Positions 16,881 through 46,635 are shown, counted from the first letter of the whole stretch. The stretch is 62,975 nucleotides of DNA, filler included, from Octopus bimaculoides (GCF_001194135.2; 5 parts of 4 records of this genome joined end to end with filler, not necessarily neighbours in it); one strand, 5' to 3'. Program-made: numbers and translations. Notes: generated by a model from the sequence alone, not told the origin.

Positions 16881-16950
16881 AAACATCAATAAAATAATGC
16901 TGCTGAAACAGCTGTTGTAAACCTTTAAAATCCATTCGTTTTCTTCTTGT
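16881..16950 (+). ncRNA. Hammerhead ribozyme family H3, 3' half only
   Basis: ctgctGAAACagctGTTgtaaacctttaaaatcc matches 18273-18310 and 20370-20405. The CUGACGA half is absent. Confidence 0.55.
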
Positions 16951-16959
16951 TATATATAA

Positions 16960-18203
16960 CAGGGTCTTGCAATTAAATTGAGACACTTTTTACGATACAT
17001 AAAACTAGTTATAAATACTAAAGTAATGGTAGTAGATAAATATAATTTTAAAGTAACATTTATTGCTACAAAAACATTTATCATTCAGTACGGAAGCCCT
17101 TTTGGGCGACTACTACCTCGAAAGTGTTTTTTAAGCTGCTGCAACTTCCGCTTGTCGCACGCACAACGCATGTCTTTAAACTGTTGACATTCGATTGCTT
17201 GAAATACGTTCCATAAAAAGTAATCCGGAAGGTTGAGATCTGGACTATTACTGAGACAGATGTCGACCCTCACAAAAAATGGAACCTTCTCCGAAAGGAA
17301 GGCCTGTATTGCATTTGACCCATGGCATGGTGCAGAATCCTGGATAAACAACACCACATTGTCACGCCCAAACTTCTTCTGCTCCAATCAAGATAACAGA
17401 GAGTTCTCCGGGATATCCAGATGCTCCTTCGTTTGTGCCGATCTTCAAGCCAAACTCAATGAAGTGTGAATTCATGACACTTAGATCACTCGCCACGGCT
17501 CCAAATACCATCAGGAGACAGGACTTTTAGTTTCAAATACAGCGGAGATGTCAGAAGGGTTTTATGCAATCACCCGAGAATTTCTGCGATTCCCCTCAGC
17601 GTCTGCATTGAACTTCTCGTCTACAAACACGAGCGATTTTCCTGCGCTTTAGTGCTTGATCAATGACAGAAGTTTGTGCATTTCTCGGTTCTGATTGCTT
17701 TGGCCATGGCTGTTAGGAGGTGACGGCGTCGTCGAACATAGATGGTCATGCCAAGGTTCCTGTTCACAGCTCTCGACACGGTGAAAATGAATATATTGCA
17801 TTTCTTTGCGAGAGTTGTCATGGATGCGGATGGGTTGCCTTCAATCGAGCATTCGAGGCCAGCGAGAAACTTTGGATTGCGCTTGGAATCACTTTGAGTC
17901 TTGTGTTCTGTTCTATCAATCTTTCCCTCTTCTTTAAATTCTTGTTTACACACAATAAACTGTTGCTTTTTGAAGCTTCGTCAACTTAACAATTTCATTG
18001 CAATGTTCCCGGCGGGCACCAAAACAACAATGGCGGAATGATTCTGTTGTTCCATGATTTTCTGTTGTCGAATCAGTTCGCTATTTACTTGAGAAATAAA
18101 GAGGAGGATTAGATTTTCAATCAAGCAAGGTTTGGTCAAAATATGAAATGTTGAACCCTCTAACTCAACTGTTTAAAATTAGTTTCAATTAATCTGCAAG
18201 GCC

Positions 18204-18206
<3 letters not shown>
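16960..18206 (-). mobile_element. maT (DD37D) Tc1/mariner transposon with TIRs, decayed
   Basis: Imperfect TIRs cagggtcttgcaattaaattgagac and gtttcaattaatctgcaaggccctg, flanked by TA. Peptide QDSAPCH...SPDLNLPDY has 37 residues between the 2nd and 3rd Asp. HTH-like N-terminal region NPSASMTTLAKKCNI. Confidence 0.85.
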
Positions 18207-18251
<45 letters not shown>

Positions 18252-18272
18252 ATAACAAGAGCACAAATGGAT

Positions 18273-18379
18273 TTTAAAGGTTCACAACCACTGTTTCAGC
18301 AGCATTATTTTGTTGATGAATAGTTGGATTACTACGATTGCAACATGAAGCAAATCTGCTTTCGTCAGGTGAGTTTAAA
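18273..18379 (-). ncRNA. Type I hammerhead ribozyme, family H3
   Basis: Minus strand: UUUAAA-C-UCAC, CUGACGA, A, AGCAG/53-nt loop/CUGCU, GAAAC-AGUG-GUU cleavage, then GUGA-ACC-UUUAAA. Predicted cut between 18286 and 18285. Confidence 0.7.
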
Positions 18380-19199
18380 TTTAGGCAGGAGAAGACAATT
18401 CCGATCGACCCGTATTGCCAGAAACCGTTAAAGCGAGTGAGTACATGTGAAGAACTGGTTGCAATTGCGTGTATACATAGCTATGTATACACATAGATAC
18501 CAACACTCCTCCAAACACATGAACATAATCAAAACCATATGCGTACACATATATCTATGTATACGTACATGCATACACACACACACATATGCATACATGT
18601 ATACATACATACATATACATATACTATCAAATAACTAAGTGGATATTTGTACATATACACACAAGTCTTATACATCAAACAGTGATCTTTGTATCTATAT
18701 CCATATTAGCATATATACCTATGTACATATACACACACTTACAAACATTTACATACGTACACATGCACATACACACACACACATACATACATAAGCACAA
18801 AAACAGGCATGTATAAAGATACTTGTGTCTAATGTGGTAACAATCTTTTAATCTCTTTTTGATGAGATTCAAATGATTTGAACTTACACTCCGAAATCTT
18901 TACTGAAGTATAAGTCCACGAGGTAAAGAGTGGTTATAAAGGGAACGCAGGTGAGCAGACATTGAGGTAATGACGCAAATAAACAAATAAAGTTGTTTGG
19001 GTTTGATATCCAAAATATACATACAAGTATACATGTAAATAGTGAGAAAGCAAAAACCGAAAATATTCAGACAGTGAATATTCATGCATAAATATAACCG
19101 AGCAAACTTACACATAAAGACACATAAAATCAAAGGGGATGAGGTATAGTGATACAGTCCCAACAGTTGTTTCTGGGGGTTCGGAGTTACTTCATAATG

Positions 19200-19830
19200 C
19201 TGGCAGATGTAGTTCACAAAACTTTGCAACCAGTAATGGAAGCATATAAGCGTTGGGTAGACTCGGCCTCCGTCTTCAGAGTGTAGAGAATAAAATCTAG
19301 CATTTCAAATGAGAATTCAGGAGAATTTGGAGGTAGATTGGGTGAAGACGAAGGTAAACAGTAGTGAGTGGAGGGAGAAGTGTGTAGCTCGATATGGGTG
19401 TGGGGGAGTTGAAGCAAGGAAGGGCAAAAAGCAATGGAGGGGTGAGCGCTCAGGGTATTGAGAAGTAGTAGAAGTGGAGAGTTGGGAGATAAGAGTGAAG
19501 GGTGGGAGGGGCAGAATTTTCAAGGATGGTCGTTGTTGTTGATTTTGACAAGTTAGGGATGGTGCGGCTATAGAAGTAAATTGGAATAGTGAGAGAAGGG
19601 AGGCGCGAGTATTAAAAGGAAGGAAAGGGTCCAGTTATAGATGCTAGTAGGATGGTGAAGGATGAATTTGAAGAATGATGTTGGGTTGGCGGCGGAGGGA
19701 TAGTAGTGCAGCATGAAGAAACGTATAAGAGTAAAGAGAGGGAGAGAGGGGGGGATAGGTTGTTGGCGAAGGCAGAGTAGTTCTTGTTGAAGAATAGGCT
19801 GGGAGAAGGTAAGGAAGAAAATTCAAAGTA
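19200..19830 (-). mobile_element. Possible highly decayed LINE linker region
   Basis: Pyrimidine-rich minus strand with Pro/Ser-rich pseudo-peptides loosely like CR1/Jockey EN-RT linkers. Weak support. Confidence 0.3.
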
Positions 19831-19877
19831 TGAGGATGGGAAGATTGTAAGAGGGGATGTGCTGGGTAAGAGGAATG

Positions 19878-20105
19878 AGCGAGCTGGCAGAAACGTTAGC
19901 ACGCCGGGCGAAATGCTTAGCGGTATTTCGTCTGCCGCTACGTTCTGAGTTCAAATTCCGCCGAGGTCGACTTTGCCTTTCATCCTTTCTGAGTCGATTA
20001 AATAAGTACCAGTTACGCACTGGGGTTGATATGATCGACTTAATCCGTTTCTCCGTCCTTGTTTGTCCCCTCTGTGTGTAGCCCCTTGTGGGCAGTAAAG
20101 AAATA
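19878..20105 (+). mobile_element. SINE family A, full-length
   Basis: Near-identical to 6218-6439. Confidence 0.85.
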
Positions 20106-20297
20106 AGAGGAATGGGCAAGAGTAAAATTAAGAAGAAATATTTAGTGGAAGGGGTGGTGTTAGCGGAAACAACATAACACTCTACCCTATGTGTATCCAT
20201 TGCAGACAGTTAAATTTCAACAGTTCTTCACATGTACTCACTCACTTTGACGATGTCTGGCAAACGGGTCGATCGGAATTTTCTTCACCGAACCAAA

Positions 20298-20403
20298 TTT
20301 AAACTCGCCTGACGAAAGTGGATTTGTTTCATGTTGCAATCGTAGTAATCGAACTGTTCATCGATAAAATAATGCTGCTGAAACAGTGGTTGTGAACCTT
20401 TAA
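20298..20403 (+). ncRNA. Type I hammerhead ribozyme, family H3
   Basis: UUUAAA-C-UCGC, CUGACGA (20309-20315), A, AGUGG/loop/CUGCU, GAAAC (20380-20384), AGUG-GUU, then GUGA-ACC-UUUAAA. Predicted cut after 20391. Confidence 0.7.
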
Positions 20404-20654
20404 AATTAATTTGTGTTCTTTTAGGCAAATGCCATACCTGGAACCATCCGTATCTTAGATCTATTTTGTATTGCATCGTGAACTTCCATGTGTGTATCTA
20501 TAAACACATGCACACAAACAAACACACACATACGTATGTGTGTGTGTATGTGTTTGTATATAAGTGCATATATTGAGATGTGTATATATTTGATGCGTCA
20601 TCATATATGTGAAACTCGACTCTTTCCCGGCGTCCGCAATGTTAAACTACCAAG

Positions 20655-23600
20655 ATAACTTTCTTTATTGGCCACACAGGGCTGAATATAGAGGGGACAA
20701 ATACAATGTAGAGTTTTCCTTTTCGAAGGGAGGGGGCGACAACTAAACAAAATTTTTTTTTTTAAATTAGGGAGAACGATCAAAAGGGATCGAAATCGTT
20801 TGGGATAGACACACAAAAAGTCGAAATAATACAAAAAGTTCCAAAACAATGGGGAGGTTTATCCGTGAAAAGAAAAACCTACGAAAAGACCACGGTAACC
20901 TCGGGCAAAAATGTCACATATCAACACAAGTGATACTTGAAAAAGTTGATGAGAGATTGACCAGAGAGGAAAGTGTTTGTCTCTAATCCTTTCAGACACG
21001 TCCACCAGATGCATTCTTTCGCCATAGCCACAGGTACGATGAAAATAGCTCTTTCATCCCGTTTGAAAGAAGGAGGCGCGACAATATTAACGATAGACTC
21101 AGCTGATAAATTGACTCGTTCCATACGTTGCTGCAGTCGTTCGACATAAGCCCACAGGTCGGAAATGGTTGGACACAGCACGAGTGCGTGCAGAACGGTC
21201 TCGTCACTCTGACCGCATCTCGGGCAGGTCGGCCCCGTGTTTCTCGAGCCGTGTCAGTAGAGCTTATCCCGAACGGGTAGCGCTTCTCGGTAGCACAGCT
21301 AGGCCAGTCGTCTTGAACAGGCAGGTCACGTATTCTTCGTCGACGCCCAGGTTCGCCCCGAGACCGTCGTCGTACCTCCCCTCCGCTGATCCCCTANNNN
21401 NNNNNNNNNNNNNNNNNNNNNNNNNNNNNNNNNNNNNNNNNNNNNNNNNNNNNNNNNNNNNNNNNNNNNNNNNNNNNNNNNNNNNNNNNNNNNNNNNNNN
21501 NNNNNNNNNNNNNNNNNNNNNNNNNNNNNNNNNNNNNNNNNNNNNNNNNNNNNNNNNNNNNNNNNNNNNNNNNNNNNNNNNNNNNNNNNNNNNNNNNNNN
21601 NNNNNNNNNNNNNNNNNNNNNNNNNNNNNNNNNNNNNNNNNNNNNNNNNNNNNNNNNNNNNNNNNNNNNNNNNNNNNNNNNNNNNNNNNNNNNNNNNNNN
21701 NNNNNNNNNNNNNNNNNNNNNNNNNNNNNNNNNNNNNNNNNNNNNNNNNNNNNNNNNNNNNNNNNNNNNNNNNNNNNNNNNNNNNNNNNNNNNNNNNNNN
21801 NNNNNNNNNNNNNNNNNNNNNNNNNNNNNNNNNNNNNNNNNNNNNNNNNNNNNNNNNNNNNNNNNNNNNNNNNNNNNNNNNNNNNNNNNNNNNNNNNNNN
21901 NNNNNNNNNNNNNNNNNNNNNNNNNNNNNNNNNNNNNNNNNNNNNNNNNNNNNNNNNNNNNNNNNNNNNNNNNNNNNNNNNNNNNNNNNNNNNNNNNNNN
22001 NNNNNNNNNNNNNNNNNNNNNNNNNNNNNNNNNNNNNNNNNNNNNNNNNNNNNNNNNNNNNNNNNNNNNNNNNNNNNNNNNNNNNNNNNNNNNNNNNNNN
22101 NNNNNNNNNNNNNNNNNNNNNNNNNNNNNNNNNNNNNNNNNNNNNNNNNNNNNNNNNNNNNNNNNNNNNNNNNNNNNNNNNNNNNNNNNNNNNNNNNNNN
22201 NNNNNNNNNNNNNNNNNNNNNNNNNNNNNNNNNNNNNNNNNNNNNNNNNNNNNNNNNNNNNNNNNNNNNNNNNNNNNNNNNNNNNNNNNNNNNNNNNNNN
22301 NNNNNNNNNNNNNNNNNNNNNNNNNNNNNNNNNNNNNNNNNNNNNNNNNNNNNNNNNNNNNNNNNNNNNATCGAAAGCTTTCGATTGATCCAAATTCATC
22401 AGGTTCCTTAACTACCCTGTCTACGATGTAGCGCATCAGATGGAGGTTGTCATGGATGCTTCGGCCCGGCACGGTGCACGTTTGTGCCTTGTCGACCAGT
22501 TTCTCGATGACAAACGCCAACCTCTTGGCTAACACCTTGGCCAAAATTTTCAAGTCTGCATTGAACAGAGTGATGGGCCTAAAGTTTTCTATTACACCAA
22601 CACTTGTTTGGATCTTTCTTCAGCAGCGTTACGGCTCCTCGGCACACAAAACCGGGAATGCTCCCGTTCTGCTGCCAGTTGCAGTACACCACTGCCAAGA
22701 CCTCTCCAAACAAGTCTGGTATACAGTTGTAAAGCTCGAAGGGCAGACCATCCAAACCCGGCGATTTGTCCCCTCGAGCATCCTGCCATCGCGTCCCTCG
22801 CTTCTGCCTGCGTGATGGCACCTTCGCAGCACTCTGCCTCTCTTACTGATGTCGTGGCAGGCTGTGCAGGTCGGCACTGAAGTCCATCCTACGTTCTCGC
22901 TCGTCACTCGTCCCGAACAGTCGGGCAAAATGCTGCTGAAACCCCTCGCACATCTTGCCGGGCTCGAGCAATTCGCACCTCTGTTCATCTGCCAGAGGTC
23001 GAATAGTAGCTTTGTTGCCCCGTTTCGCCTCCACCACCCAGGCCTCTCGCGCGGCTCCAACGCCTTCGTTGCTTAGAGCACGCATCCTAGGTCTGACAAC
23101 ACACCCTTCGTGTTTGGCGTCGATGATGCTTCTTACCACCTCTTCTAACTTCTGAACTAGCTCACTATCTACTCTGTTTCTATCTATGGTTAGTGCTTTG
23201 CTATATCTAATCGCTTCCACTTTTACTGCTCTCTTGCGGGGGCAAACAGCCATTTGTTGTTGATAATGGCTCAAGTCAAAGCTCTCATTACTAGCGTGCT
23301 AATTCGGTCTCTGAAAACCTGTCTCGAAGGGAAAGACGCGTTCAGTTTCCAGTAACCGGGGCCCTGTCTATATGCCTTATCTAAGTCTAGCGTACACGTT
23401 ACAAGTTTCTGATCCGTGTAGCTGACTATGGGGAATTGTGGACATCCTAAGCTATCCCTATCTACTGTCCTACACAGGATCTTATCTAGATACGATCACG
23501 ACGACCCAATGCGGTTGCTCCATGTCCACGTTGGCATATTTGGGTGGTCGAAGGTAACAATGAAGAATGCGTCTCCAGAGGTAGAGACACAATGATTACT

Positions 23601-26120
23601 ATCTGCCATCTGCTTCGAAAGGGTCTGAGCAGGTCTCTGAGGCATTTGCATCCCCGCCTATTTCTATCTTTCCCCACGTAGTCTATATGCGTGTCCAAGG
23701 TAGCATTCCAATCTCCCACTAAATGTAAAGGACGAGACGTTCCTAGGAATACTTCTAGACGTCGAAAGGAATCCGGCCGACCTGTTAAAGGCGGTGCATT
23801 GACTGATGGGGGTCGAAAATCACACCCATCGCTGCCGTCGACATCTAGGACAACCAGTCTACCCTCCGGGTCTACGAATATCGTCTTTTCTTCGAGCTCT
23901 AGACTCTTGCGAAAGACTACAGCTGTGCCACTACCGCCCAGCCTTGGCAGACAGGGAGAAAAATAAATGTTAAACTGTCCACCAAACATGGACTTTAGGG
24001 CTCGTGGCTCATGGAGTCAGGTCTCACTTATGGCTATGATTTCCAAATCGTGTGACTTTATGTCATTTAAGAGGTACCCTTGTTTCCAAGGGGACCCCCA
24101 AGCCACGCGCATTCACACAACCAATCTTGACCATGATCCTATTGAGTTGTGTGTTTTAAAATACAAACGAAAGGAACAGCAAGTTACAAACCGTTCGAAA
24201 GTTTTGTCTCCTCCTTTGATTTTTCATCAAGGAGGCTGTTGCAAAGTTTTTTCGATGACATCCTCCTACCGCATTGGGGTAGAGGGATTTTAGTGTGTGG
24301 TGCAATGTTGTTGTGATATGGTAAATTTTAATGTGTTCTGGTGGTGTTGTATATGGGTGGTCGCTCGTTTTAATGTTGTTTTCTGTAATCTTTGTTTTCG
24401 AGTTGATGTATTTCATCAACTCTGTGTTGTAAATGTTTATGGCTGTGAGCATGGTTTTCGTGGTGTTGGTGTTGTTTTATTAGAGTTGGAAATGTTTTCA
24501 GAAGCTGTGTATCTCCCTGCTTTGTTGGTGTTTGCTTTTGTTCTTTTTTTGCTCCTCTCCCTCCTTCCTTTTCTGGCTGTTTGCCAATCCTCACTACTTT
24601 CATCTTCCGACGAAAGTTCTGGGGAATCGGAAGGGGGTAAGGGCATGTTATAAACGTCTGTGTGTGTTTCTGTTTTCGTTGGTGTTGGTTGTTGGTTATT
24701 TGTGTTAAGGGTATGCCATATAGGGGAGAGGGATTCAGTTTTTGCATCTTTTGCTTTTCCTGTATCTCCACTTATTGGTGTTTTTCCAGGAGTTGTTTTG
24801 TTGTTGATTGTTGGTGTTGTTTTTTATTGTCTGTTGTGTTGAAAGTGCTTTGGGTAGCAAGGTTTTATTTCCAGGTTTTGGTAGTGATTGTTGTTGTTGT
24901 TGCTGTTCTGGTTTTTTGGCGGCAGTTGGACAATCATTTTTCAGATGTGTCTTGCTGTTGCACAAATAACACCGTGGCCGTCTGCCCTCCATCACTACAT
25001 GTAACTTTATCCTTCTGCTAATTGAATACTTGTGGGTAATTAATTAATCGATTCTTGATCGATCTGTAAAAGTATCTCCAGCATTTTACCCACCCAGTTT
25101 TGCTGTTCAAGGACAGCAATTTCTAAAATGTTAGTTTCCTCCATTTCGAAGCAGATGGTGGATAATAACCATTGCGTCTCTACCTCTGGAGGCACATTCT
25201 TTATTGTCACCCTTATGACTCTCTGCCCAAGATAACTGGGTATCATTATCAACTGGTCTGTACAAAGAGTAAGTGTTGAGAATTGTTTTGCTAAGTTTTC
25301 ACAGTGAAAACGCACTTGAACAGTGGCAAATTTATGCCACCGATTGATGTATCCTTTATGTGTCCATACAGGGCGAAGGCATTTTTCAATTATTTCCTGT
25401 GCTGTGTTCTCGGGTTGTTTTCGTTTTTGTACTCAATATTTTGTAGATGATGGTTCTTTTTGTGTTTGTTCTAAAATGTTCTGTAGGATGTGTAAGTGTA
25501 AAGTTTCGCCTTCTTTGTGGAGCAGTGTTTTTGTTTCTTTTATTTGTTGATCAGTGAACGATACAGTTGTTTTTTTCTTTTTTGTCTTATCGCTTCAGCG
25601 AAATTTGTTTTTTCTTTTGTGGTGGTGGTGGCAGAGGTGTCAGCTGCAGCAGTTGAAGGTGAAGTTGTAGTGGTGGTGTTGGTATTTTCTTTCGTAGAGG
25701 TCATGGCCGACGGCTTTGCGACGATATCGTTGTTGTTGTTGGTGGTGGTGGTATCCATGTTTACATTTGTATTTTTTTGTGTGAGATTTCTCTTTTCCTC
25801 GCTTCTTTCATGAAGTTGTGGTGAAAGTAGTGTAGGAAACTCGATGTCAAAGGATTTTCCAAGGAGCCTGGCGTTCGTTACAAAACTGTCTTTATGGCTT
25901 GAGAACGCCATCTTCGAATGAAAAATGACTAAGAAAGCTGACAACAAATTCACAAAATCAGGAAACACGCCACGAAGGGCAGGTTTCCTGTGCAAACAAT
26001 TTGCACGATCGAATCTATTAGTTGTTGCACAACTTTTACATAAAAAATATTATACACTTTTGAAGGTAAAAAGATATTATACACTTTTGAAGGCACAAAA
26101 AGAAAACTTACTCCGAGTCG
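20655..26120 (-). mobile_element. Near full-length decayed Tx1/L1-like non-LTR retrotransposon (ORF1 + ORF2)
   Basis: ORF1 from ATG 25911 contains the zinc knuckle CYLCNSKTHLKNDC. ORF2 from ATG 24134 contains MVKIGCVNARGL...IIAISET, LVGDWNA (APE), KSPGLDGLPFELY and KILAKVLAKRL (RT), and C-terminal CPRCGQSDETVLHALVLC. AATAAA at 20664-20669 (minus). RT middle lies in an N gap; several stops and frameshifts. Confidence 0.88.
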
Positions 26121-26142
26121 ATGTGACTATCGTCCGTCCATA

Positions 26143-27157: not shown

Positions 27158-27329
27158 GGACGATGAAATGGGTGCTCAACACCGCATTGCAGAATATAGA
27201 ATTTCTTTATTTGTGAATTAGGGTTATTATTGGTTTCATGATAAGAAAAGTAGGAAAATATCCTAGCGTCTTAATAATTTTTCAAGCCGATCACATGGAG
27301 AGGGGTGCTCAACTCCAGTAAAATTCAAC

Positions 27330-29130
27330 CAAAATTCCAACCAGTTCCAATACGCATTACAGACATACATCGAACCTTTCAAAATATCAACGAATATGTT
27401 TATTAAAGCAGGAAAAACAAAAACATATTTATGAAGTAAGCAATCAAATATACAATAAACTACTAACCGACAATATAACTAAAGCATACAAGAAAATAAA
27501 CCCCACCACTTGTAATTCAATTAATATAGATGCAATATATCCAGCCACAAAGTTTAAAATAGAAGACAAAGTAGATAAACTTATCCCACGAAATCTTTTT
27601 ATAAATTTAGAAGACTATAAAAATAATTTCACACAAAATCCTAGCTGCAGATTAATAAATCCCACAAAAAGTGAAATAGGAGTTATTAGTAAATCTATAT
27701 TAGATAATATTATACGACATATCAGAGAATACTCAAATCTTACCCAGTGGATATGCAGTAGTGCAACTATTGAATGGTTTAAGAAAATAGAAGTTAAACC
27801 CAAATGCAAGTTCATACAATTTGACATCGTAGAGTTCTACCCCTCTATCTCCAAAATTCAGAAGGCATTTGAATTTTGCAAAACGTACGTCACTATAACT
27901 AATATTGATATAGACATAATTATGAACGCAAGGATGTCAAAGCTCTTTCAGGATAATTACTACTGGATAAAAAAGAATGGAGATGAGTTATTTGACGAGA
28001 CAATTGTAAGTTATGACGGTGTAGAGATAGCTGATCTTGTAGGCCTTTATATCCTAGATGCCCTTCGAAAGAAATAAAAGAAGCTAACGAACATGATATG
28101 GATAGAATGATGAAAAGTTCTGCAAAATATTTAGCCAATTAGGCCTAAGAACCACAATTAGTACAAACCTTAAAGAATTCAACTTCCTAGACATTAACAT
28201 GAATCTTAACACAGGAAAATTTAAACCCTACCATAAAGAAAATGAGGAAGTCTCGTACATGGACGTAGATTCCAACCACCCACCAGCAGTAATTAAACAA
28301 ATAGTTTGCAACATTAGCAGGCGGATCTCCAATTTATCCGTCGAGAAAGACACTTTTGAAAAAGCCGCCTCGTATTATATGCTGCCTTAGAAAGGTCCAA
28401 CTTCAAGAAGAGCATACACTACATTGAACCAAATATAAATAGACAAAGAAGACGCAGACAAAGGAAATTCTTATGGTTCAACCCATAAATGCAGCTAGTA
28501 ACATAGGTAGGAAATTCTTAAAACTAATAGACAACTACTTTCCACATTCAAACAAATACCATAAGATCTTCAACAGAAATACTGTTAAAGTTATCCATAG
28601 TTGCCTCCCAAATATACGATCAGTAATACTTAATCACAATAAACATAAATACACCGCCCCCCAGAAAGACAATGCAACTTCGGATCCCCAAACCGCTGCC
28701 CTCTAAATGACAACTGTCTCAAGAAAGAACTCGTATACAAGGCCAAGATCACGGGTCTCAACGGAATAGCAAAGATGTATATCGGAATGACGGGTAACTT
28801 GTTCAAGAAACAGCAACATCTTATGTCATTCAGAAACAAAGAGAAAAAATGTGTCATCCTATCAAATACAATTTGGACATTGAAAGAAGGTAGAAAAAGC
28901 AACCCCCAAATAGAATGGAAAATTATTGCTAAAACCAAAAAATACAGAAATGGGGTATTAAATGTGAATTCTGTATTAAACATTAAACAATCAACAGATA
29001 ACATCTTAAACATTGCATACACAAACAATATTTTACATTCAAATATTTCAAAGGACCCCCCCCCCATAAACGAGTTTAAATTCGTCAGGATAGCCCCTTT
29101 CCTAAACGTGAACACATAGCACATAAACTT
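27330..29130 (+). mobile_element. Penelope-like element (Naiad-type), RT plus GIY-YIG endonuclease, decayed
   Basis: RLINPTKSEIGVISK, FIQFDIVEFYPSISK, EIADLVGLYIL, SNHPPAVIKQI, RKFLWFNP, KIFNRNTVKV, CPLNDNCLKKELVYKAKI...MYIGMT and IEWKII. Frameshifts and stops present. Confidence 0.85.
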
Positions 29131-29663
29131 CACAGAAAAAAGGAATAAGCCCCAATAACGTACTACCTCAACATATAAGTAGAAAACCACCATGCCCAGA
29201 ACAAAAGCAAATAAATCATGCAAATTTAATGAAAAGACAAATCAAAGGGAGACAAACTCCAAATGATGCCACTCTAGAGTAACGTCCCTTGATTCATTGA
29301 ATCATTGTTTCATCCACGCACATTGACGAGACATCCCGTGAACGAAGTGAGACTGTTTTCCAAAATGGAGGCGAACACCTTTCTCCATNNNNNNNNNNNN
29401 NNNNNNNNNNNNNNNNNNNNNNNNNNNNNNNNNNNNNNNNNNNNNNNNNNNNNNNNNNNNNNNNNNNNNNNNNNNNNNNNNNNNNNNNNNNNNNNNNNNN
29501 NNNNNNNNNNNNNNNNNNNNNNNNNNNNNNNNNNNNNNNNNNNNNNNNNNNNNNNNNNNNNNNNNNNNNNNNNNNNNNNNNNNNNNNNNNNNNNNNNNNN
29601 NNNNNNNNNNNNNNNNNNNNNNNNNNNNNNNNNNNNNNNNNNNNNNNNNNNNNNNNNNNNNNN

Positions 29664-31331: not shown

Positions 31332-31417
31332 TTGTGGTACACGTGTTTCGAGCTTTATACACAAACTGTCATTACATCAGTATATAAAGGATGGTTTAAA
31401 GCGATCTTCAGCCGCAA
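31332..31417 (-). ncRNA. Type I hammerhead ribozyme, family H2 (left arm of inverted pair)
   Basis: Minus strand: UUGCGG, CUGAAGA, U, CGCUUUA/~37-nt loop/UAAAGCU, C, GAA-ACACGUGU-A, then CCACAA. Predicted cut between 31338 and 31337. Confidence 0.7.
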
Positions 31418-31604
31418 ACATTCACTCTATGCTGAATTGTGGTACAGTATGGGCAGATTTCTCAATACCAACGAACATTTATGCAGATATAACAGTTTAA
31501 AGGATAAGCCTATTATAATGGATAATACTAAGTGGACTTTTCCTGTCTCTCTCTCTCTCTTTTTCTTTTTTTCTTTGTGATGTAATCTTGGGTCTGAATG
31601 TATT

Positions 31605-31707
31605 TGCGGCTGAAGATAGCTTTAAACCATCCTTTCTATCAACAATATATACTCATATAATGATACAATGACAGTTTGTGTATAAAGCTTGAAACACGTG
31701 TACCGCG
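31605..31707 (+). ncRNA. Type I hammerhead ribozyme, family H2 (right arm)
   Basis: UGCGG, CUGAAGA (31610-31616), U, AGCUUUA/58-nt loop/UAAAGCU, U, GAA (31691) plus palindrome ACACGUGU, GUA site, then CCGCG pairing with UGCGG. Predicted cut after 31702. Confidence 0.8.
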
Positions 31708-31941
31708 ATATCCTTTGTGTTCTGTTTTCAATTTACGTTTAATATATTCTTTCACCTCTGCCACTATCCGGCATATACAGGTGCTTACACTTATCAAGTA
31801 TTACCTCTAAAATTTACAGTACCTACGCNNNNNNNNNNNNNNNNNNNNNNNNNNNNNNNNNNNNNNNNNNNNTTAATTAATTAANNNNNNNNNNNNNNNN
31901 NNNNNNNNNNNNNNNNNNNNNNNNNNNNATATATATATATA

Positions 31942-33260
31942 TACTGAACAATACACAGCATGGCTTCCGTCCAGGAAGAAGCTGCTTCACACAAATCCTA
32001 CAACACTATGACTGGGTTTTAAAACAGCTGCTTGACCATTCGGATGTCAGTGTGATATACCTTGACTTTCCAAAGGCATTTGATAAGGTAGATCACGGTA
32101 TGATATGTCATAAGCTACGAGACCTTGCATTGCTGATAAACTGGGACAGTGGCTGCACGACATCCTTAAAGACAGAAGTCAGGTAGCTGCAGCCAATGAT
32201 GCCCTTTATGAGGATACTCATCTCCCAGGGAACTGTTCTGGGGCCATTACTGTTCATAATAGCCCCCTTAGACATACCCACGGTCACTCAGACAAATACT
32301 GTCACTAGGTATACCGATGATATAAAATTATCACAGGCAATAAAAAAAATCAAGATGATGTCATTAGATTTCAGCGGGACCTGAATTCGATATACAAGTG
32401 GGCCGAAATAAACAACATGCAGTTTAATGCTTGAAAATTTCCGGCACTGCACTATCAACTCACGAATGCACCACAGCCTGCATATATAGGACCTAAAAGC
32501 ACTATAATCCCTGAGTCACAGGCAGTGAAAGACTTGGGGATCAGTGTATGCCATGATGCATCATGTACATTACCAAAATGGCAGCAAAGTGCAGACAACT
32601 GGGAGGATGGATACTGAGTTCCTTCAAGACAAGAGACCAAGAAACTATGTTGAAACTGTGGAGAACCTTTTTTCTCAACCACCTGGACTGCTGCTCCCAG
32701 TTATGGTCACCACATAGTGCCAAACAGCTGAGTTTTAAACAGTCTAAAGCCACTACACTAGAAAGATTGAAACAGTGCAGCGAATGAGCCAGAGAGATAG
32801 GCTGGGAAAATTGCAACTTTACTCTCTGGAGCGAAGGCGCGAGAGATATGCAATAATCTACATTTGGAAAACTCTAGAAGGGCTAGTATCTAATTTCAGC
32901 ATTGAGAGTTATACAAATGCCAGAACTGGCCGCCATTATATTGTACCAAAGGTAGCATCCGCTCCATATAAATTCAGGACCATGTACTACAATAATCTAG
33001 GGTTTACAGGCCCACAGCTCTTCAATGCTCTGCCACAAAAATTAAGAAGTCTGAACAAGGTGGAAGTAGATGTCTTCAGAAAGGAACTAGACATCTTCCT
33101 CTCCACAATACTGGATGAACCAGCAGCCCGACATGAGGTGCAGACGAGGGCAACAGAAATAAACTCACTTATACACCAAATGGCCCAACAGCTGGGACAA
33201 AAGCACATACAGGAGTGGTGATGTGAAACACATCAGACTGAGAAAATCAGAAAGACCACG
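31942..33260 (+). mobile_element. CR1/L2-group LINE, RT and 3' end, decayed
   Basis: QHGFRPGRSCFTQ, YLDFPKAFDKVDHG, QGTVLGPLLFII, YTDDIKL and LQLYSLERRRERYAIIYIWK. Confidence 0.88.
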
Positions 33261-33515: not shown

Positions 33516-33609
33516 AACCAGAAATGGCTCTGAAAAAGGTAGCGTTAATTTTTTTAGGTAGTTCAATTTTTCTCAACTGATCAATAGCCCAATTAGATAA
33601 ACCCACCAG

Positions 33610-34730
33610 TATAATGACTACTGGAAACAGCTGTAAGCCAAATTTGCTCTAATAAAGGAAAAATATGTAATGACATCTACTCCCACTTCATGGAAATCCC
33701 TCAGATGTTTTGACAAGGCGTTGAATATCCGTGGGGTCTTGAATCCTATGGCATTGCAGTACATCGTCCTCACTCTAGATGGCACAGCTGGGACCTTTGG
33801 AACAGTGCAGGGACCTACAAATCGAGGTCTGGTATGGCTCTCGATTCCAAACTTTGGTGCCAGCCCCTCCAATATCTTCCATACATATAGCATTGTATAC
33901 TTTCCACACATATGTGTGTCTTCCACCCCTGTATCACTCTTCCGTCTTTGCTCCAGGGAGTAGTCGTAGCTCTTTCAGTCTCTCCCAGCTTCTCAGCTAT
34001 TCCATTGATACAATCTTCCTTGTGTAACATTGCTGAACCTCCTACATTCTGCTATTAATCTCACACTGACTATTTGCCTGTATTGAATTTCACGTTGTTT
34101 TCCTTAGCCCATTTATATATGGCATCAAGGTCTTTTTGTAGATTAACGTCAGAAGGTTCCTTGACTGCTTGTACTACTTTTGTGCCGTCGACATAACTAT
34201 TAAGTGTGGCTGTCTGTGTAACTGATGGCATGTCTGACAGAGCCACTATGAACAGCAGCGGCTCCAGTCCAGTTCCTTGAGGCACTCCACTGACTGTTAC
34301 GGTTTCCTTGGAGAGGGCTCCATTGGCTGCTACAAACTTGCTTCTGTCTTTTAAGAAGTCATGCAACCACTCTCCGAGTTACCCGGCTATTCTGAGTCTC
34401 CGAAGCTTTTGACATATCATCCAATGATCAACCTTATCAAAGGCATTTGCAAAACAAGATATATCACATCCACGTTTGAGCGATTCATTAAATATTTCAA
34501 CACTTAGTCAAAGAGCTGCAAAAGTTGTGTAAGGCAGCTCTTCCCAAGCGAAAGCCATACTACGTGTCAGGTAGCAAGTCATTATCTTCAAGGAACGCAA
34601 TTAGTGTATCCTGACAATGAGTTCCATGACTTTGCTGGCGTGGGAAGTTAGAGAGACAAGTCTATAATTTATAGCATCTGCTCTGCTACCTCTCATAAGG
34701 ATAGGACACCATAAGGGCTTTTCTTTTTCG
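33610..34730 (-). mobile_element. CR1/L2-group LINE RT fragment, same family, inverted orientation
   Basis: MHDFLKDRSKFVAANGALS...SGVPQGTGLEPLLFIVALSD...YVDGTKV and YVWKILEGLAPKFGIE. Confidence 0.85.
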
Positions 34731-37960: not shown

Positions 37961-37994
37961 AAGTGGGTCCTTAGTCTCTGGTTTGCAACTGAGG

Positions 37995-38230: not shown

Positions 38231-38266
<36 letters not shown>

Positions 38267-38267
38267 N
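37995..38267 (-). mobile_element. SINE family B, 3' half
   Basis: Reverse complement of the family B tail, with a short (catctaggtaaa)x3 expansion. Confidence 0.8.
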
Positions 38268-39741: not shown

Positions 39742-40201
39742 TACGAAGTGGTATCAAAACGCTCCATAACTTGTTATGTTTAATAAAGAAAAGTAACTTA
39801 TTTACCTAAGTTTTAACATCATTTCCTTCGAAGTAGTCACCTTGCACAGCAATATACGGGTCCCAGCTTTCCTGCCAGTTTTGGAATCCAGCCTGGAAGT
39901 CGTTTTCCGTAAGCGAGTCGAGAACCTTCTGCAATTCGCTTTTGATCTTGACAACGGTGCTAAACGGTGACCTTTGAGCTGCAATTTAATCTTGGGGAAG
40001 AGACAAAAATCGAAGACTACAGCATGCACGTGATCACAAAAATACAGATTTAACAACTTGCGAAGTAAACACAGCGATGTCACTCGGCTCACTGCCTCAT
40101 GAAGGTTACTACTAGTTCTTCTCAATGCGCACACAACCGTATGCCGCCACCCGTTGGCGCGCTACAGAACTAGTCCGGGAACTGTTTGATATCATCTCGT
40201 A
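39742..40201 (-). mobile_element. Internally deleted mariner with both TIRs
   Basis: Left tacgaagtggtatcaaaacgctcc resembles the reverse complement of right ggaactgtttgatatcatctcgta. The interior encodes LFPKIKLQLKGHR...WKAGTRILLCKVTTSK, like 85-300. Confidence 0.7.
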
Positions 40202-40760
40202 AAACTACAAGACTATATGAATTGCCTGAATTCTGGTGGTGTAAATGATGCGAGGAAACATACCTAGCAGAATATTTTTCTTCACCCTCTTATGAGAATG
40301 TTAGTAGTGGTTGCAACGAAACAAATAATTTTCTAAAATAACACGTAGAAGAAAATAAAAAATACTGAACACTGATGCTGTCCTGTAGTCGAAAGCTACA
40401 ATTGATAGATATATTTTAAATATATAGTTAAAGAATGAGGGATATTATTCAAGACCTGATTATGTATTTATAATGAACCATGTAATTCAGCAATAACACA
40501 CACCCACGTGCAAACAAATAGAACTAAATAAAACATGTGCAAAGTCGTTCTCATTTGATTCAGAAAACAAAAAACAAGGCCCTGGCACCACAATATTTGT
40601 AATGGTGTTGTGAGTGTTTATTGAGCGAAAACACCTAAAGCTCCATGAGGCTCCGGCAGGGGATGGTGGCGAACCCTGCTGTACTCTTTCACCACAACTT
40701 TCTCTCACTCTTACTTCTTGTTTCTGTTGTCCCTGTAATTCAATGGGCCANNNNNNNNNN

Positions 40761-41090
40761 GCACCACAATATTTGTAATGGTGTTGTGAGTGTTTATTGA
40801 GCGAAAACACCTAAAGCTCCATGAGGCTCCGGCAGGGGATGGTGGCGAACCCTGCTGTACTCTTTCACCACAACTTTCTCTCACTCTTACTTCTTGTTTC
40901 TGTTGTCCCTGTAATTCAATGGGCCAGCCTTGTCACACTCTGTGTCACGCTGAATATCCCCGAGAACTACGTTAAGGGTACACGTGTCTGTGGAGTGCTC
41001 AGCCACTTGCACGTTAATTTCACGAGCAGGCTGTTCCGTTGATCTGATAAACTAGAACCCTCGACGTCGTAACTGACGGAGCGCCAACAA
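40761..41090 (+). mobile_element. SINE family C, 5'-truncated
   Basis: gtgagtgtttattgagcgaaaacacctaaagctcc...gagaactacgttaagggtacacgtgtctgtggagtgctcagccac matches 47168 and 51588. Confidence 0.8.
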
Positions 41091-41099
41091 TCCACTCGG

Positions 41100-41300
41100 T
41101 TGTCAATGGCTTGTCAGTAGAAATCACTGGGTCTTGACTCGAAGAATTCATCGAACCACGTCTTCAGCTTCACATTGTTGTGGAACGAAACGCCTCGTAG
41201 ATGGAGAGCGAACGGAAAAGGTAATAATTAGAAGACGCTACATCAGGAGAATACGATAGGTGTTGTAGAACTTTGAAACCGAGTTCATGAATTGGATTTT
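41100..41300 (-). mobile_element. mariner 3' fragment
   Basis: Minus-strand LSYSPDVASSNYYLFRSLHLRGVSFHNNVKLKTWFDEF. Confidence 0.7.
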
Positions 41301-41657
41301 GGTCAAATTAACGACGTTGGGGCTGAGTATTGTTATGTTGAAAGAGATGGCACTCCATCGCCATATATCAGAAAAGGGGTAAAATTTACTCAAATTCAAA
41401 AATGGTAAAAAAAATATTGTGGACGAAAAGTAGGGTTACAAAAAAAAAATTATAAAATATTACGATAAAAGTATTTTTTGCGCTAATTCGAATAACATTG
41501 GAAGGAAACGAAGAAATTCATCAAACAATGAAATATCAAATATAACGGAGAGTTTTCCTAGGTTTTGATTAAAACTTAAGGATAAAATGTTTTATTGAAA
41601 TTTAGATATGGAAATTTGAATGAAATGTTATTCTCATAGTTATATGCTTAATTAAGG

Positions 41658-41950
41658 AGAGGCGCTGGCAGAGTCGTTAGACCGTTGGGCAAAATGTTTT
41701 GCGGCATTTCGTCCGTCTTTATGTTCTGAGTTCAAATGTTGCCGACATCAACTTTGCCTTTCATCCTTTTGGGGATAATAAAATGAGTACCAGTTAAGTA
41801 CTGAGGTCGATTTAATCAATTGTCCCCTCCTCAAAAATTTCGGGCCTTGTGCCTAGAGTAGAAAAGAATAAAATAAGTACCAGTTGAGTTCTGAAGTCGA
41901 CGTAATCGACTTATTCTCTATCTTGCTGGCCTTGTGCCAAAATTTGGAAT
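41658..41950 (+). mobile_element. SINE family A copy with duplicated 3' part
   Basis: gcgctggcagagtcgttag...gagttcaaat...gcctttcatccttttgggg...aaatgagtaccagtt. Confidence 0.75.
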
Positions 41951-42239
41951 CAATATTAAAATAGAGCAAACTATTGGTGAAATATAAATGTTGACGACTC
42001 AGTGTAAAAAGCTGTAATATATATTTCAAAGCATCAATGAATGTTTAGTTTCTTTTCAATTCTTTGCTTAAATGAAAATATAAAAAATTATACAATTGTT
42101 AACAATAAAATATTGATTTAGAAACCATGAATAAAAAAATAAACTTTTTTTTTTCAATTTACATTGTTTTCTTTATTCAACAACTTCTATAAGAAAACTA
42201 TAAATATGGTAACAAGTCATATCTCGATAAACCGTGAAA

Positions 42240-42303
42240 ATGGAACGAATAATCATAGCCGCCCTCCTGACAATCTTTGTTTGCTGCTCGACCGCGTCGC
42301 CCG
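42240..42303 (+). CDS. S1A serine protease exon 1 (signal peptide MERIIIAALLTIFVCCSTASP)
   Basis: ATG 42240, hydrophobic signal peptide, donor g|gtaagt in phase 1 matching the next exon. Confidence 0.75.
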
Positions 42304-43154
42304 GTAAGTTATACTTGAAAATTATCTTTAATATTCTTTAAAACTATTCCTGTCTTTCACTGCTGTAGAGCACCAGAGAAGATCTCCTTCTGTTGACCAA
42401 GATGTTTATTTAAATCGCCAGCCTATTAACGTTGACGTTATTAGGTTGTTAGCGTTCATTATAGAGGTAGTCTGCAGAAAGGTTCACCAGCCCTGACTAC
42501 GGTGCCATATGCAGAGATAAATGTCGCAGCGTCTCGTCTACGTTTATTCTGATTCTGAGTTTAGTAATTCCGTCTCTGAAAAGGGTTTGTAAGGACCAGC
42601 TTAATGACCATTAGATCGCAGAGGAAGGGACGAATACTAAATATCTGGGTCTGTTACTAGCTGGGTACCGTTCTTGCAGTTGCTTTATTAGAAACGAACA
42701 GAATCTCATCCAGGCTAATCCTGTTCTTAATCAGTTGTGCAATAACGCTTTCTGCAACTATCATAACCTGGTTAAACAATTTAATGCCTGTTTCCCTCTA
42801 GAGTATTTGATTCTCTCTAGAGCATTTTGTTTGCTTTTGCAGTACTTAACTACCATATAACTACACAAATTATTGGGTATGGCATCTTGCTGTATCATTA
42901 TTTGACTATTTCCTTGGCTAGCATGTGCCTCGCTTTGCCAAATATCTTAATCATCTCAGCAAATCCCACCGACGAATCAGCTGCGGTCTATACATTTATA
43001 TATGTAATTATAGTTACAACCACACTAGATCAATTTAATGGCCGGTGCCTCTGCTGTTTCTACTCGGATAGATTCTTATTTCCCCATGCATTCACTACAT
43101 ACAAAGATTTCTCATAGTAACACTTCTATGCCTCATTATTTCTAGCGTGTCTGA

Positions 43155-43557
43155 AGGCGGCGAGCTGGCAGGAGCATTAGCATGCCGGGCGAAATGCTTA
43201 GCGGTAGTTCGTCTGTCTTTACATTCTGAGTTCAAATTCCGCCGAGGCCGACTTTGCCTTTCATCCTTTCAGGGGTCGATAAATTAAGTACCAGTTGCGT
43301 ACTGCGGTCGGGCTAATCGACTGGCCCTCTCTCCAAATATTTCGGGCCTTGTGCCTAGTCTAGAAAAGAATCGTTAGCACACCGGGCGAAATGTTAGGCG
43401 GTATTTAGTCTGTCTCCATGTCCTGAGTTCAAATGCCGCCGACGTCGACTTATCCTTTCAGGGTCGATAATTTAAGTACCAGTTACGCACTGGAGTCGCT
43501 GAAATTGTCTAGTCTCATCCCCCCCCAGAATTTCCGGCCTTGTGCCTATAGTAGAAA
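43155..43557 (+). mobile_element. Two tandem SINE family A copies
   Basis: Full copy at 43155-43372, followed directly by a second, partly deleted copy. Confidence 0.8.
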
Positions 43558-44257
43558 GTTTTATTTTCGGCGTCTCTTTATGATTTGCTATGCACTACTC
43601 AAAAATTGTATCTCAATTGTCTGTTGTACCCGGTCTTGCAATCTGGTGTATCTCATACCTGTGATCCTCATGTCACAAAACGTGACGTGCAAACCTTTTT
43701 CTTTTTGTCTCTCCCTTTGCTAAGAATATCCGACGCCTTGCTTCAATTCTGACTCCTTGATACTAATCTCTGCTTCTTTTCTACTGTTTATCCAAGATTG
43801 TCTCTTAGATTTATGGTTCAATCTATAGCAATATGCAACCTTGTTACTTCCACTAGTCACACATGGTTTGTAGATTATCTAGTAAAGAGTTCAATTTCCT
43901 ACCTATCAAGTACAAACTTTAATTTCCTTCCTATATCCTCTTCTCCACTTCCATATGCCTTAACAGGAGCTTCTCTGTATCTCCCATTAATAGGAAGCTC
44001 TTTCAACGTCGATATCTTCCTTCTTGAGTGATACGTATGCATCTGAATACATAAGGTAATTTCTCTATAGTTGCTAATTACGTAATGTGGAGTATTCGTT
44101 GATATGTAAAGTGTTAACTTTCATATTCATCTGCCTGTCTCGTTTCCTGATGGGCATACGGTCTACATCTGCCTCTCGTTTTGTTTTTAAATTTACTTGT
44201 TCAGTGTGTACTTTCTGAGTTGTAGAAATTACAGGCTTTTCTTTTCTTCCATTTCAG

Positions 44258-44402
44258 ATGAGCACATTGTTAGTGGATCTGATGCTGGACAGTGTGAGTT
44301 TCCTCACATGGCTTACTTAACAATTAAAATGAGAGGAAGTGAAACATTCTGTGGTGCGAGTCTGTTATCTGATAAATGGGTCTTGACTGCTGCCCATTGC
44401 CT
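44258..44402 (+). CDS. S1A serine protease exon 2 (DEH-IVSG...CGASLLSDKWVLTAAHCL; catalytic His)
   Basis: ttccatttcag acceptor, ct|gtaagt donor, TAAHC motif. Confidence 0.93.
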
Positions 44403-45031
44403 GTAAGTAGTTCTCAGTAAATTTTCTTCCCGTTACTTTTTATCTTCTACTTTTTATTTGTTTCAGCCATTGGAGTGCGGTCATTTTGTGGCAGTGTCTT
44501 AAAGAGTTTCTGTCGAGAAAATGAATCTCAGTACTTACGTCTGTCTTGTTTTAAAATCTAGCACTTATTCTATCGGTGTCTTTTGCCCAACTGCTAATTT
44601 GGGATGATGTAAACAAATCAACACTCACTTTCTAATTGTGGAGACGAGTAAACACAAATACATACAGACCGACACGCTAGATATTATATAGCTTGGTTTA
44701 AGAAGAGACAAAATTTAGATAATCATCCTATAGTATTGATTTACATCAACATAATAAATACATACAGCACAATGAATACACCAAGACAAAGAACATATCA
44801 ATATATTATTTAGAATAGAAAAAAGAAATATATGAGGTAAAAATATACGTGGAAAGGATAAATAAATGAAGAGATTAAAAATGTTGAATTAAGAATTAGA
44901 AACTATAAGATATATCGACGGTAGTGAGAAATATTAATGATGGATTTAAAAGTCAGAGAAATAACGAAGATAAATTTGTTTTAAGAGTTTTAAAGAAATG
45001 CTTATAGAGGGTTATATCACCATAGAAGATG

Positions 45032-45120
45032 TATTTCGACGGCCGTTTCTAGGGGCTATTTGTCTACAATGTAGGAATCTATTAATTTCACATTGACAAG
45101 GTACCCTTCATCAGGAAATA
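45032..45120 (-). ncRNA. Type I hammerhead ribozyme, family H1 (left arm)
   Basis: Minus strand: UAUUUC, CUGAUGA, AGGG.../...CCCU-A, GAA-ACGGCCGU-C, then GAAAUA. Predicted cut between 45038 and 45037. Confidence 0.75.
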
Positions 45121-45329
45121 AAGAAATAGATAGCAAGGTTTGAAGATATATAAGAGAAATGAGAATATGTTTACATTATGTTTGTCGTCTTCCATTATCC
45201 TACTCTAAAGATTTCTGTACATATATAAGTGTGAATCATGGTAAAAGTGGTCGGCACCTGATACAGTAGCCCACGAACAATATATTTTCCTTTCTATTAT
45301 ATTTCTTCAAACCTTGCTATCTATTTCCT

Positions 45330-45418
45330 TATTTCCTGAAGAAGGAGAAATTGTCAGTGTGAAATTAATGGATCCCTACATTGTAGACAAATGGACTCCG
45401 GAAACGGCCGTCGAAATA
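45330..45418 (+). ncRNA. Type I hammerhead ribozyme, family H1 (right arm, sense to protease intron)
   Basis: UAUUUC (45330-45335), CUGAAGA (45336-45342), A, GGAG/48-nt insert/CUCC, G, GAA plus palindrome ACGGCCGU, GUC site, then GAAAUA completing a 6-bp helix I. Predicted cut after 45412. Confidence 0.82.
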
Positions 45419-45854
45419 CATCTTATATGGTGATATAACCCACTATAAACATTTCTTTAAAACTCTTAAAACAAATTTATCTTCGTTATTTCTCTGAATT
45501 TTAAATCAATCATTAATATGTCTCACTACCGTCGATATATCCTATAATTTCTAATTTTTAATTCAACATTTTTAATCTTAAATTTATCATTTTTAATCGA
45601 TGTATCACTCTTCATTTAGTTATCTTTTCCACGTATATTTTTACCTCATATATTTTTTATTTCTATTCTAAATGATATATTGATATGTTCTTTGTCTTGG
45701 TGTATTTATTGCGTTGTATGTATTTATTATGTCGATGTAAATCATTACTATAGGNNNNNNNNNNNNNNNNNNNNNNNNNNNNNNNNNNNNNNNNNNNNNN
45801 NNNNNNNNNNNNNNNNNNNNNNNNNNNNNNNNNNNNNNNNNNNNNNNNNNNNNN

Positions 45855-45893
<39 letters not shown>

Positions 45894-46100
45894 CTTGTGT
45901 GTCTATGTTTGTCCCGCCAACATCGCTTGACAACCGATGCTGGTGTGTTTACGGCCCCGTAACTTAGCGGTTCGGCAAAAAAGACCGATAAAATAAGTAC
46001 TAGGCTTACAAAGAATAAGTCCTTGGGGTCGATTTGCTCGACTAAAGGCGTTGCTCGAGCATGGCCACAGTCAAATGGCAGAAACAAGTAAAAGAGTAAA
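45855..46100 (+). mobile_element. SINE family B, 3' half
   Basis: (GT)n, then gtttgtcccgccaacatcgcttgacaaccgatgctggtg...gaaacaagtaaaagagta. Confidence 0.8.
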
Positions 46101-46102
46101 GT

Positions 46103-46480
46103 TGTTACCTAAAATAACTTATCGCAGAATTATTATGTTCACACAGAACGCACTTCGTTCTACTCGAACGTAGGTACGATTTTAACCAACAAACGTCGCA
46201 CTAACACAGTAAACAATACGGTCGACCAACACTGTCAACTTCCACTGGCAGTTCACACAGTTCTTTATTTATTAAAATCCGTTAGTCCACTTCTAGTCAC
46301 GTGGGGGTATTCTAGATCCTCCCGCATCAACAGTCCTCTCAGCTCTAAAGGGGTTAAGTGTGGGATGTACTGGCGTCCCGTCGAGGAGGACTGTTCGCCA
46401 GCATGGCTAGCCTGTGGGTTGACGTCATTCCAAAGCTACAACAATGCCAGCAAGCGCATTGGGAATAACAATGTATAACA
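46103..46480 (-). mobile_element. Possible solo LTR
   Basis: TGTTA...TAACA termini and AATAAA on the minus strand. No target-site duplication found. Confidence 0.3.
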
Positions 46481-46538
46481 ACATCCATTAGCGTGGTCGA
46501 TGCAGAAAACGAGTCGTTCGGTATTATCTCCAACCAGC

Positions 46539-46635
46539 TTTAAAATCACCAAACGAAAGTAGATATTTTTCTATGTTATCAATTTATTCATCAATAAGAA
46601 AAACAGCTGTTGTGAACCTCTAAAATCCATTTGCG
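46539..46635 (+). ncRNA. Degenerate H3 hammerhead copy (core mutated)
   Basis: tttaaaa-tcac-caaacga-aagtag...aaacagctgtt-gtgaacc. CUGA is changed to CAAA and the 3' strand of helix II is lost. Confidence 0.45.

Follow-up and report, generated by a model that had tools for sequence, protein, structure and literature searches.

The question raised by this locus is why hammerhead ribozyme motifs with an unusually long stem II lie close together on opposite strands. The window, meaning the whole stretch of 62,975 nucleotides analysed from Octopus bimaculoides (GCF_001194135.2; five parts of four records of this genome joined end to end with filler), includes 7,013 N bases in 32 gaps and contains four families of such motifs, H1 to H4 (Table 1). 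A sequence-only reading had taken three of them for fold-back elements with ribozymes of both polarities. Instead, with a probability of roughly 0.7, these type I hammerhead motifs are the 3' ends of old, 5'-truncated Penelope-like elements (PLEs) of the Hydra-clade design, and the opposite-strand pairs are by-products of insertion.

The evidence that carries this reading is observed: the motifs themselves, the geometry of the pairs, their likeness to Hydra-clade hammerheads, and the same layouts beside Hydra-clade open reading frames (ORFs) in other animals. It was drawn from the window, one read alignment of the H1 stretch, 12 comparison loci and published papers.

The hammerhead motifs

A descriptor for type I hammerheads that allowed 8-120 nt between the core halves was run over the whole window. 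It returned five matches, all among the eight copies already listed (C3 positions +20309, -18368, +31610, +45336, and -45114), and 100 dinucleotide shuffles of the window gave no match to the strict form and a mean of 0.07 to the loose form. Within the window, the proposed check with a long loop II came out in favor of the motifs. The complete core (CUGANGA, GAAA, NUH and three helices, with helix I open) is present in six of the eight copies. The claim that all copies read the full motif holds for these six but not for the H3 copies at 16881, which has no CUGANGA within 130 nt, and 46539, where both core halves are mutated. The H2 minus copy retains both halves, but helix I contains a C.A mismatch and the first pair of its helix II is disrupted. 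The fourth family, H4 (+33530), was absent from the earlier list and was found with a relaxed descriptor that gave no match in 60 shuffles. It begins right after a (TG)n run. The proposed search with the Rfam hammerhead families was negative, with no match in the window at the gathering threshold and no hammerhead among the 120 matches listed to E 5. In all six complete copies, the minimum-energy fold is more stable than the monomer hammerhead fold, by 1.1-10.3 kcal/mol.

As had been claimed, the families are unalike outside the core. The best of 12 cross-family comparisons of the inserts had p=0.02 and the other 11 p>0.3; all three within-family comparisons had p<0.004. Within families, helix I is paired in all 16 cells, compared with 14 of 48 across the four families, and helix II in 16 of 16 compared with 30 of 48, the register of helix II having been picked by the analyst. 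With two copies per family, one compensatory change was seen within a family, an A-U to G-C replacement in helix II of H1.

Helix III of the window families has 8 nt and lacks a middle nucleotide. Its description as a self-complementary 4-bp helix is accurate for H1 and H2, but the perfect palindrome of H3, ACAGCUGU, occurs only in the two dead copies of that family. The self-duplex energies are -14.1 kcal/mol for H1, -10.3 for H2, and -4.0 for ACAGUGGU of H3. The extra or mismatched nucleotide reported beside helix II is present in all families, with one qualification: it flanks helix II on both sides in H1 and H2, and on the 5' side only in H3. The base of helix II is a 1x1 mismatch in H1, H2, and H4 (A.G, A.A, U.U, U.C, A.G) and a single extra A in H3. 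A U.U mismatch at this position was known already (PMC3088659) and also occurs in HHR_Amex2 of the axolotl (PMC7229834).

Outside the octopus, a pattern scan of metagenomes for the H3 design gave 16 matches, none with more than two helix I pairs, which were taken as chance. Viral contigs contained no H1 motif.

Probable relationship to Hydra-clade PLEs

The earlier attribution to PLEs, like the hammerhead reading itself, holds, and it can be narrowed to a Hydra-clade-like design. Two decayed PLE ORFs are present in the window, whose homologs have at their C-terminal end the Hydra-clade motif shown by Craig et al. (2021; PMC8557442, Fig. S7). No intact hammerhead was found behind either ORF, only a worn core-like stretch near 29325. 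In File S2 of the same study, Hydra-clade hammerheads have an extra nucleotide after CUGANGA and often one before GAA, an ACNN/NNGT helix III, and (TA)n targets. One of them, Hydra-1_Obim, is from O. bimaculoides and measures 23 nt core to core by hand count. Hydra-1_Obim, Hydra-1_Crog and Penelope-13_HM resemble the window copies in being of type I, with an ACNN/NNGU helix III, an extra nucleotide, and a (TA)n tail. However, the window copies measure 55-87 nt core to core against the 23 nt of Hydra-1_Obim, their helix III is 1-2 nt shorter, and no ORF is attached. The hammerheads of metazoan PLEs described by Cervera and De la Pena (2014; PMC4209133) likewise have an extra nucleotide, a palindromic helix III, dimer cleavage, and dual motifs. 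In Fig. S3 of that paper, in contrast, loops II are 3-9 nt long, G10.1-C11.1 is mostly kept, and no cephalopod is listed.

For a direct comparison, an alignment of 25 of the 120 homologs listed led to 12 loci with Hydra-clade ORFs. These come from GTDB bacterial assemblies but are probably contigs of the animal hosts; among viral contigs, none of 62 candidates contained a Hydra ORF. Hammerheads are present in nine of the 12 loci, with 21 matches lying 83-197 nt after the end of the ORF and measuring 11-31 nt core to core. Eleven of the 21 that were distinct, on the sense strand and had a 9-10-nt helix III were used to build a covariance model. These 11 covary, with 94% of cells paired and 32 double changes, a result reached in none of 500 shuffles, and four of them have U.U at the base of stem II. 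When applied to the window, this Hydra-only model returned H1-, H1+, H2+, and H3- as the first four of its 10 matches, with scores of 20.3, 20.1, 18.0, and 12.3 bits and E-values of 0.002, 0.003, 0.011, and 0.57. The tails of H3 reach TATATA after 31-34 nt, compared with 32-54 nt in six of 10 Hydra tails, and a short tail running into (TA)n is found in H3 and H2-. Judged by these sequence features, membership of H1-H4 in the Hydra clade is likely.

Several observations weigh against this attribution. No recognisable ORF adjoins any H1-H4 copy, and a Hydra profile gave only noise nearby; on the upstream side, the window copies are cut off within about 160 nt of the core. H2-, H3+, and H4 were not recovered by the Hydra-only model, whose fourth match, H3-, was not significant. 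Among the 21 Hydra matches, helix III is never 8 nt long (it measures 9-10 nt in 18 of them), and the core-to-core distance never exceeds 31 nt. Past the cut site, H1 continues for about 330 nt, which greatly exceeds the length of a Hydra tail, and the likeness of the tails is weak (four of 50 comparisons at p<0.01 against mononucleotide shuffles). Moreover, a small number of host animals supplied the comparison loci, and a single assembly accounts for four of these loci. Lastly, the fact that four families in 56 kb all have a long folded stem fits selection equally with tolerance.

Could the stumps derive from another PLE clade (Penelope/Poseidon, Neptune, Nematis or Naiad) with a similar hammerhead design? 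Drosophila willistoni has an entry with a palindromic helix III of 8 nt whose first pair is A-U (Fig. S3 of PMC4209133), (TA)n is a target of octopus Naiads as well, one of which is marked 'HHR_half_core', and the frames upstream of H3 end in P-x-L-[N/K]-S, slightly like the endonuclease ends of other clades. However, the P-x-L-N likeness was seen by eye and carries no score, four short helix III motifs of H1-H3 had no match in the supplement with the Naiad consensus sequences, and the combination of an ACNN/NNGU helix, a basal mismatch, and a short tail is the Hydra pattern. An origin in another clade is therefore very unlikely.

Three of the comparison loci contain dense nests of inverted repeats in which several hammerhead families are stacked behind Hydra ORFs (L019 4600-5960, L022 4817-6536, and L025 5636-7352). 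They look as if elements had inserted into each other's tails.

Origin of the opposite-strand pairs

H1 and H2 are local divergent pairs, as had been noted. The arms of H1 are 91.5% identical over 445 aligned nt and form an inverted repeat of about 1 kb with 107 nt between them; those of H2 are 91.9% identical and 170 nt apart. The H2 copies differ chiefly by a 19-nt indel in the central part of the insert, which still folds in each copy. The H3 copies at 18273 and 20298 are 86.7% identical over 249 nt, with 1.7 kb between the arms. Because they have a common upstream end point and helix III variant, they likely originated in one event. Wherever two copies of one family are neighbours within 2.1 kb (four cases), they have opposite orientations. 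The minus-then-plus order proposed earlier applies to H1, H2, and H3 18273/20298, but 16881(+) and 18273(-) are convergent and split by a DNA transposon, which we take to be of the Tc1/mariner type. The latter two copies stand tail to tail around a TA run that the transposon entered later. The ends of the pairs sit in assembly gaps or TA runs.

The structure of H1 was examined further in an alignment of 156 contigs of DNA run X1, in which contig depth does not equal copy number and whose sample, the best match for H1, may be the window's own. Four contigs continue from 45284 with letters resembling the sequence upstream of the H1 left arm. Since they extend the left copy through the centre, the right arm is the 5'-truncated partner. 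One other contig appears to join a full copy to an inverted partner by an inversion joint in a different place, at 45285/45435 (n=1, among the nine of 77 loose ends and eight of 168 pieces listed), and the partner at this joint appears from its sequence to begin 3' of the cut site and would thus have no ribozyme. A joint at 45187/45589 was dropped as a second inversion, because the centre itself is reversed and an internal deletion is more likely. An intron inside the H1 loop was also ruled out, since GT is absent from the majority letters of the other contigs.

An inverted, 5'-truncated copy at the 5' end is an arrangement of Hydra-clade PLEs; it is found in the H1 right arm, and H2 and H3 18273/20298 are compatible with it. 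One Hydra-clade family carries the motif on both strands owing to a 5' inverted copy (PMC8557442), and a 2014 study had already described dual hammerheads of opposite orientation at distances of 100-700 bp (PMC4209133). In Penelope pseudo-LTRs (long terminal repeats), head-to-head is the most frequent arrangement and tail-to-tail is possible (Arkhipova et al., 2013; PMC3846280). The Penelope elements of Adineta vaga described there likewise have an inverted, shorter 5' copy, for which self-priming was proposed. Target duplications were seen in those elements, and the available passages do not discuss ribozymes. In the comparison loci, opposite-strand pairs occur in three of the nine that bear hammerheads, four of them divergent (including two ORF-less fold-backs) and one convergent. 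Such pairs stand beside intact-length Hydra ORFs, and a two-polarity design is unsupported.

The sequence-only reading had regarded the pairs as ORF-less fold-backs comparable to ambisense viroid-like RNAs, mobile as a whole and dependent on ribozymes of both polarities. The opposite orientation of all same-family neighbours and the retention of the core in both arms of H1 and H2 agree with this idea. However, the pairs correspond to the described insertion product of PLEs (PMC4209133, PMC3846280, PMC8557442), the same layouts flank Hydra ORFs, the spacing of the arms varies from pair to pair, one pair is convergent, and the single H1 contig described above has a partner starting 3' of the cut site. 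The predicted fold of the read-through RNA of the plus strand also argues against it: 89% of the H1 repeat is paired, core included, with a similar result for H2, and in both the whole plus ribozyme pairs with the other arm, so that the hairpin would mask the core. In addition, infectious circular RNAs use mostly type III hammerheads (PMC13725137). Overall, the ambisense interpretation is extremely unlikely. The label non-autonomous is also unsupported, since 5' truncation leaves ORF-less stumps; nevertheless, H1 may be a true non-autonomous unit.

In that case, H1 at least would resemble a retrozyme, a unit of about 570 nt for whose copying a PLE enzyme acts in trans, with the inverted partner still a by-product. 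Its ribozyme is flanked by about 160 nt before and 330 nt after without a trace of an ORF, it is multi-copy (among the 156 contigs, 12-21 cover the listed ribozyme positions with another letter), and it ends in a 14-nt word common to a Hydra tail. Animal retrozymes have also been proposed to derive from PLE pseudo-LTRs (10.64898/2026.07.22.740005). Like H1, the animal non-LTR retrozymes are ORF-less and have a type I hammerhead (PMC7229834; 10.64898/2026.07.22.740005). However, they consist of tandem units of 300-390 nt expressed as circles (PMC7229834), whereas H1 has no tandem or permuted repeat of its unit in the window, and within the window no direct repeat near any family suggests same-sense units of about 300-400 nt. 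A search of three RNA runs, about 6% of each, placed 24 reads on the H1 stretch, all less than 95% alike and none on the ribozyme, although such libraries may lose small circles. No RNA sample was listed as containing H1, a result that counts neither for nor against the unit. A retrozyme-like H1 is thus unlikely, and truncated PLE ends with insertion by-products are the preferred explanation for this family as well.

The long stem II

The insert of 37-58 nt reported for helix II is confirmed as a loop of about 39-58 nt inside the closing helix. The distance from CUGANGA to GAAA is 55-74 nt in the six complete copies and 87 nt in H4, compared with 11-31 nt in the fetched Hydra-clade loci. According to the fold predictions, the insert prolongs helix II irregularly and does not form an open loop. 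Its folding is uneven, with z = -0.2, -1.9, -2.2, -2.75, -0.4, and -2.0 in H1-H3 and +0.7 in H4.

PLE-X1 of Selaginella likewise has a long stem II of about 48-54 nt by hand count and is marked as deviating in File S2 of PMC8557442. However, that element is from a plant, lacks an endonuclease, targets rDNA, and has another helix III. In the same study the 'half cores' of Naiads are spaced 35-50 nt apart, and the "long helix II" of PMC13725137 is 6-8 bp. The literature search, whose reach did not include two key papers and the octopus entries of Repbase/Dfam, found no printed cephalopod hammerhead with a long stem. What is new here is the long stem II, together with the helix III of 8 nt that lacks a middle nucleotide; the core design and the pairing are known features of PLEs.

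The long stem was likely inherited from a long-stem octopod lineage, in which it was tolerated rather than needed. A more tentative and rather doubtful proposal is that the 55-87-nt folded arm is under selection in an octopod PLE lineage whose families have no remaining shared sequence, either because the element's protein uses it as a handle or because it stands in for a tertiary contact and accelerates cleavage. If so, a large class of animal ribozymes would be invisible to Rfam and to descriptors limited in size, and swapping the arm for a tetraloop would be a simple probe of the role of PLE hammerheads. In any case, four unrelated families with a stem II 2-8 times the length of their relatives', none of them seen by Rfam, suggest that hammerhead counts in cephalopods are probably too low.

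Proposed mechanism

In an active parent element, a tandem transcript would carry two same-sense ribozymes. The self-complementary helix III strands of the two copies could then pair into an 8-bp helix, and the resulting dimer would allow slow cleavage after GUC, GUA or GUU. Slow in vitro cleavage by dimers is known for PLE hammerheads with a palindromic helix III (PMC4209133). As the element integrates at (TA)n, its enzyme would frequently attach a second, shorter copy in inverted, head-to-head orientation; after truncation, the ends that bear the ribozyme would be all that remains. A transcript of such a stump from either strand would contain one sense ribozyme and its antisense, zipped into a long hairpin that hides the core. 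Since the core is hidden in the predicted hairpin, the stumps of the window likely do not cut. Opposite-strand copies in one transcript cannot form a same-sense dimer.

For a PLE of Anolis, RNA-seq likewise revealed no ends at the cut site, and mutating the ribozyme left insertion in vitro unchanged (PMC11167929).

Features of the window

Table 1. Hammerhead copies, arms of the repeats and associated elements in the window.
Feature	Position	Strand	Core to core (nt)	Remarks
Shorter PLE ORF remnant, same kind as 27228..28987	15570..16147	-		About 740 nt from H3 stub 16881, other strand
H3 stub	16884..16961	+		Second core half, helix III ACAGCUGU, tail; begins inside stem II
Decayed DNA transposon	16960..18206	-		At TA between two convergent H3 tails; terminal inverted repeats, transposase-like motifs
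H3 copy, intact core	18240..18496	-	64	C3 18368; predicted cut after 18286; 31-nt tail, then (TA)n; helix III ACAGUGGU
H3 copy, intact core	20187..20437	+	64	C3 20309; predicted cut after 20391; helix III ACAGUGGU
Decayed Hydra-clade PLE ORF	27228..28987	+		Reverse transcriptase, thumb, C-terminal GIY-YIG; no physical link to H1-H4
H2 hammerhead	31332..31417	-	55	C3 31411; (TA)n 70 nt past cut site
H2 hammerhead	31604..31708	+	74	C3 31610; U.U then 7 bp; helix III ACACGUGU; predicted cut after 31702 (GUA)
H4, fourth long-stem family	33525..33640	+	87	CUGAAAA (G8 to A); helix III ACAGCUGU; GUA
14-nt word, distal H1 end	44702..44715	-		Identical to a Hydra-clade element tail (L025), just before TATA; suggestive only
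H1 left arm	44727..45171	-		Family sense on minus; extends about 330 nt beyond cut site
H1 hammerhead	45032..45120	-	58	C3 45114; predicted cut after C 45038 (GUC); helix III ACGGCCGU
H1 centre	45172..45278	-		Upstream part of left copy, no separate loop
H1 right arm	45279..45754	+		5'-truncated inverted copy; terminates in assembly gap
H1 hammerhead	45330..45418	+	58	C3 45336; predicted cut after 45412 (GUC); A.G mismatch at stem II base
Dead H3 copy	46507..46677	+		Core halves read CAAACGA and AAAA; deletions in stem II

An ORF running through the H3 ribozyme (a P-D-E...E-T frame) was considered and rejected, as it had no profile support. At 57784-57895 on the minus strand, a weak match to the Hydra model (10 bits, E 2.6) has CUGAUGA, U.U and a 50-nt hairpin without a helix III, and may represent a further decayed copy of the long-stem type.

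H1 and the dead H3 copy at 46539 lie within one or more introns of a plus-strand gene for a chymotrypsin-like serine protease, whose exons (with TAAHC and GDSGG) are at 44257-44402, about 46710-46850, about 48100-48250, and 48304-48465. The tail of the dead copy stops about 30 nt before the likely splice acceptor. Elsewhere, positions 758-1861 of the plus strand encode an intact single-exon G protein-coupled receptor that is 99% identical to the sex peptide receptor of Octopus sinensis. Fragments of a reverse transcriptase and endonuclease of the long interspersed nuclear element type are present at 9378-9782, 21264-24016, and 32748-33221, with one weak Exo_endo_phos match. Finally, four 12-nt islands are each flanked by two 44-N gaps, at 31873-31884 (TTAATTAATTAA), 52465-52476, 56819-56830, and 60732-60743, and are probably assembly linkers.

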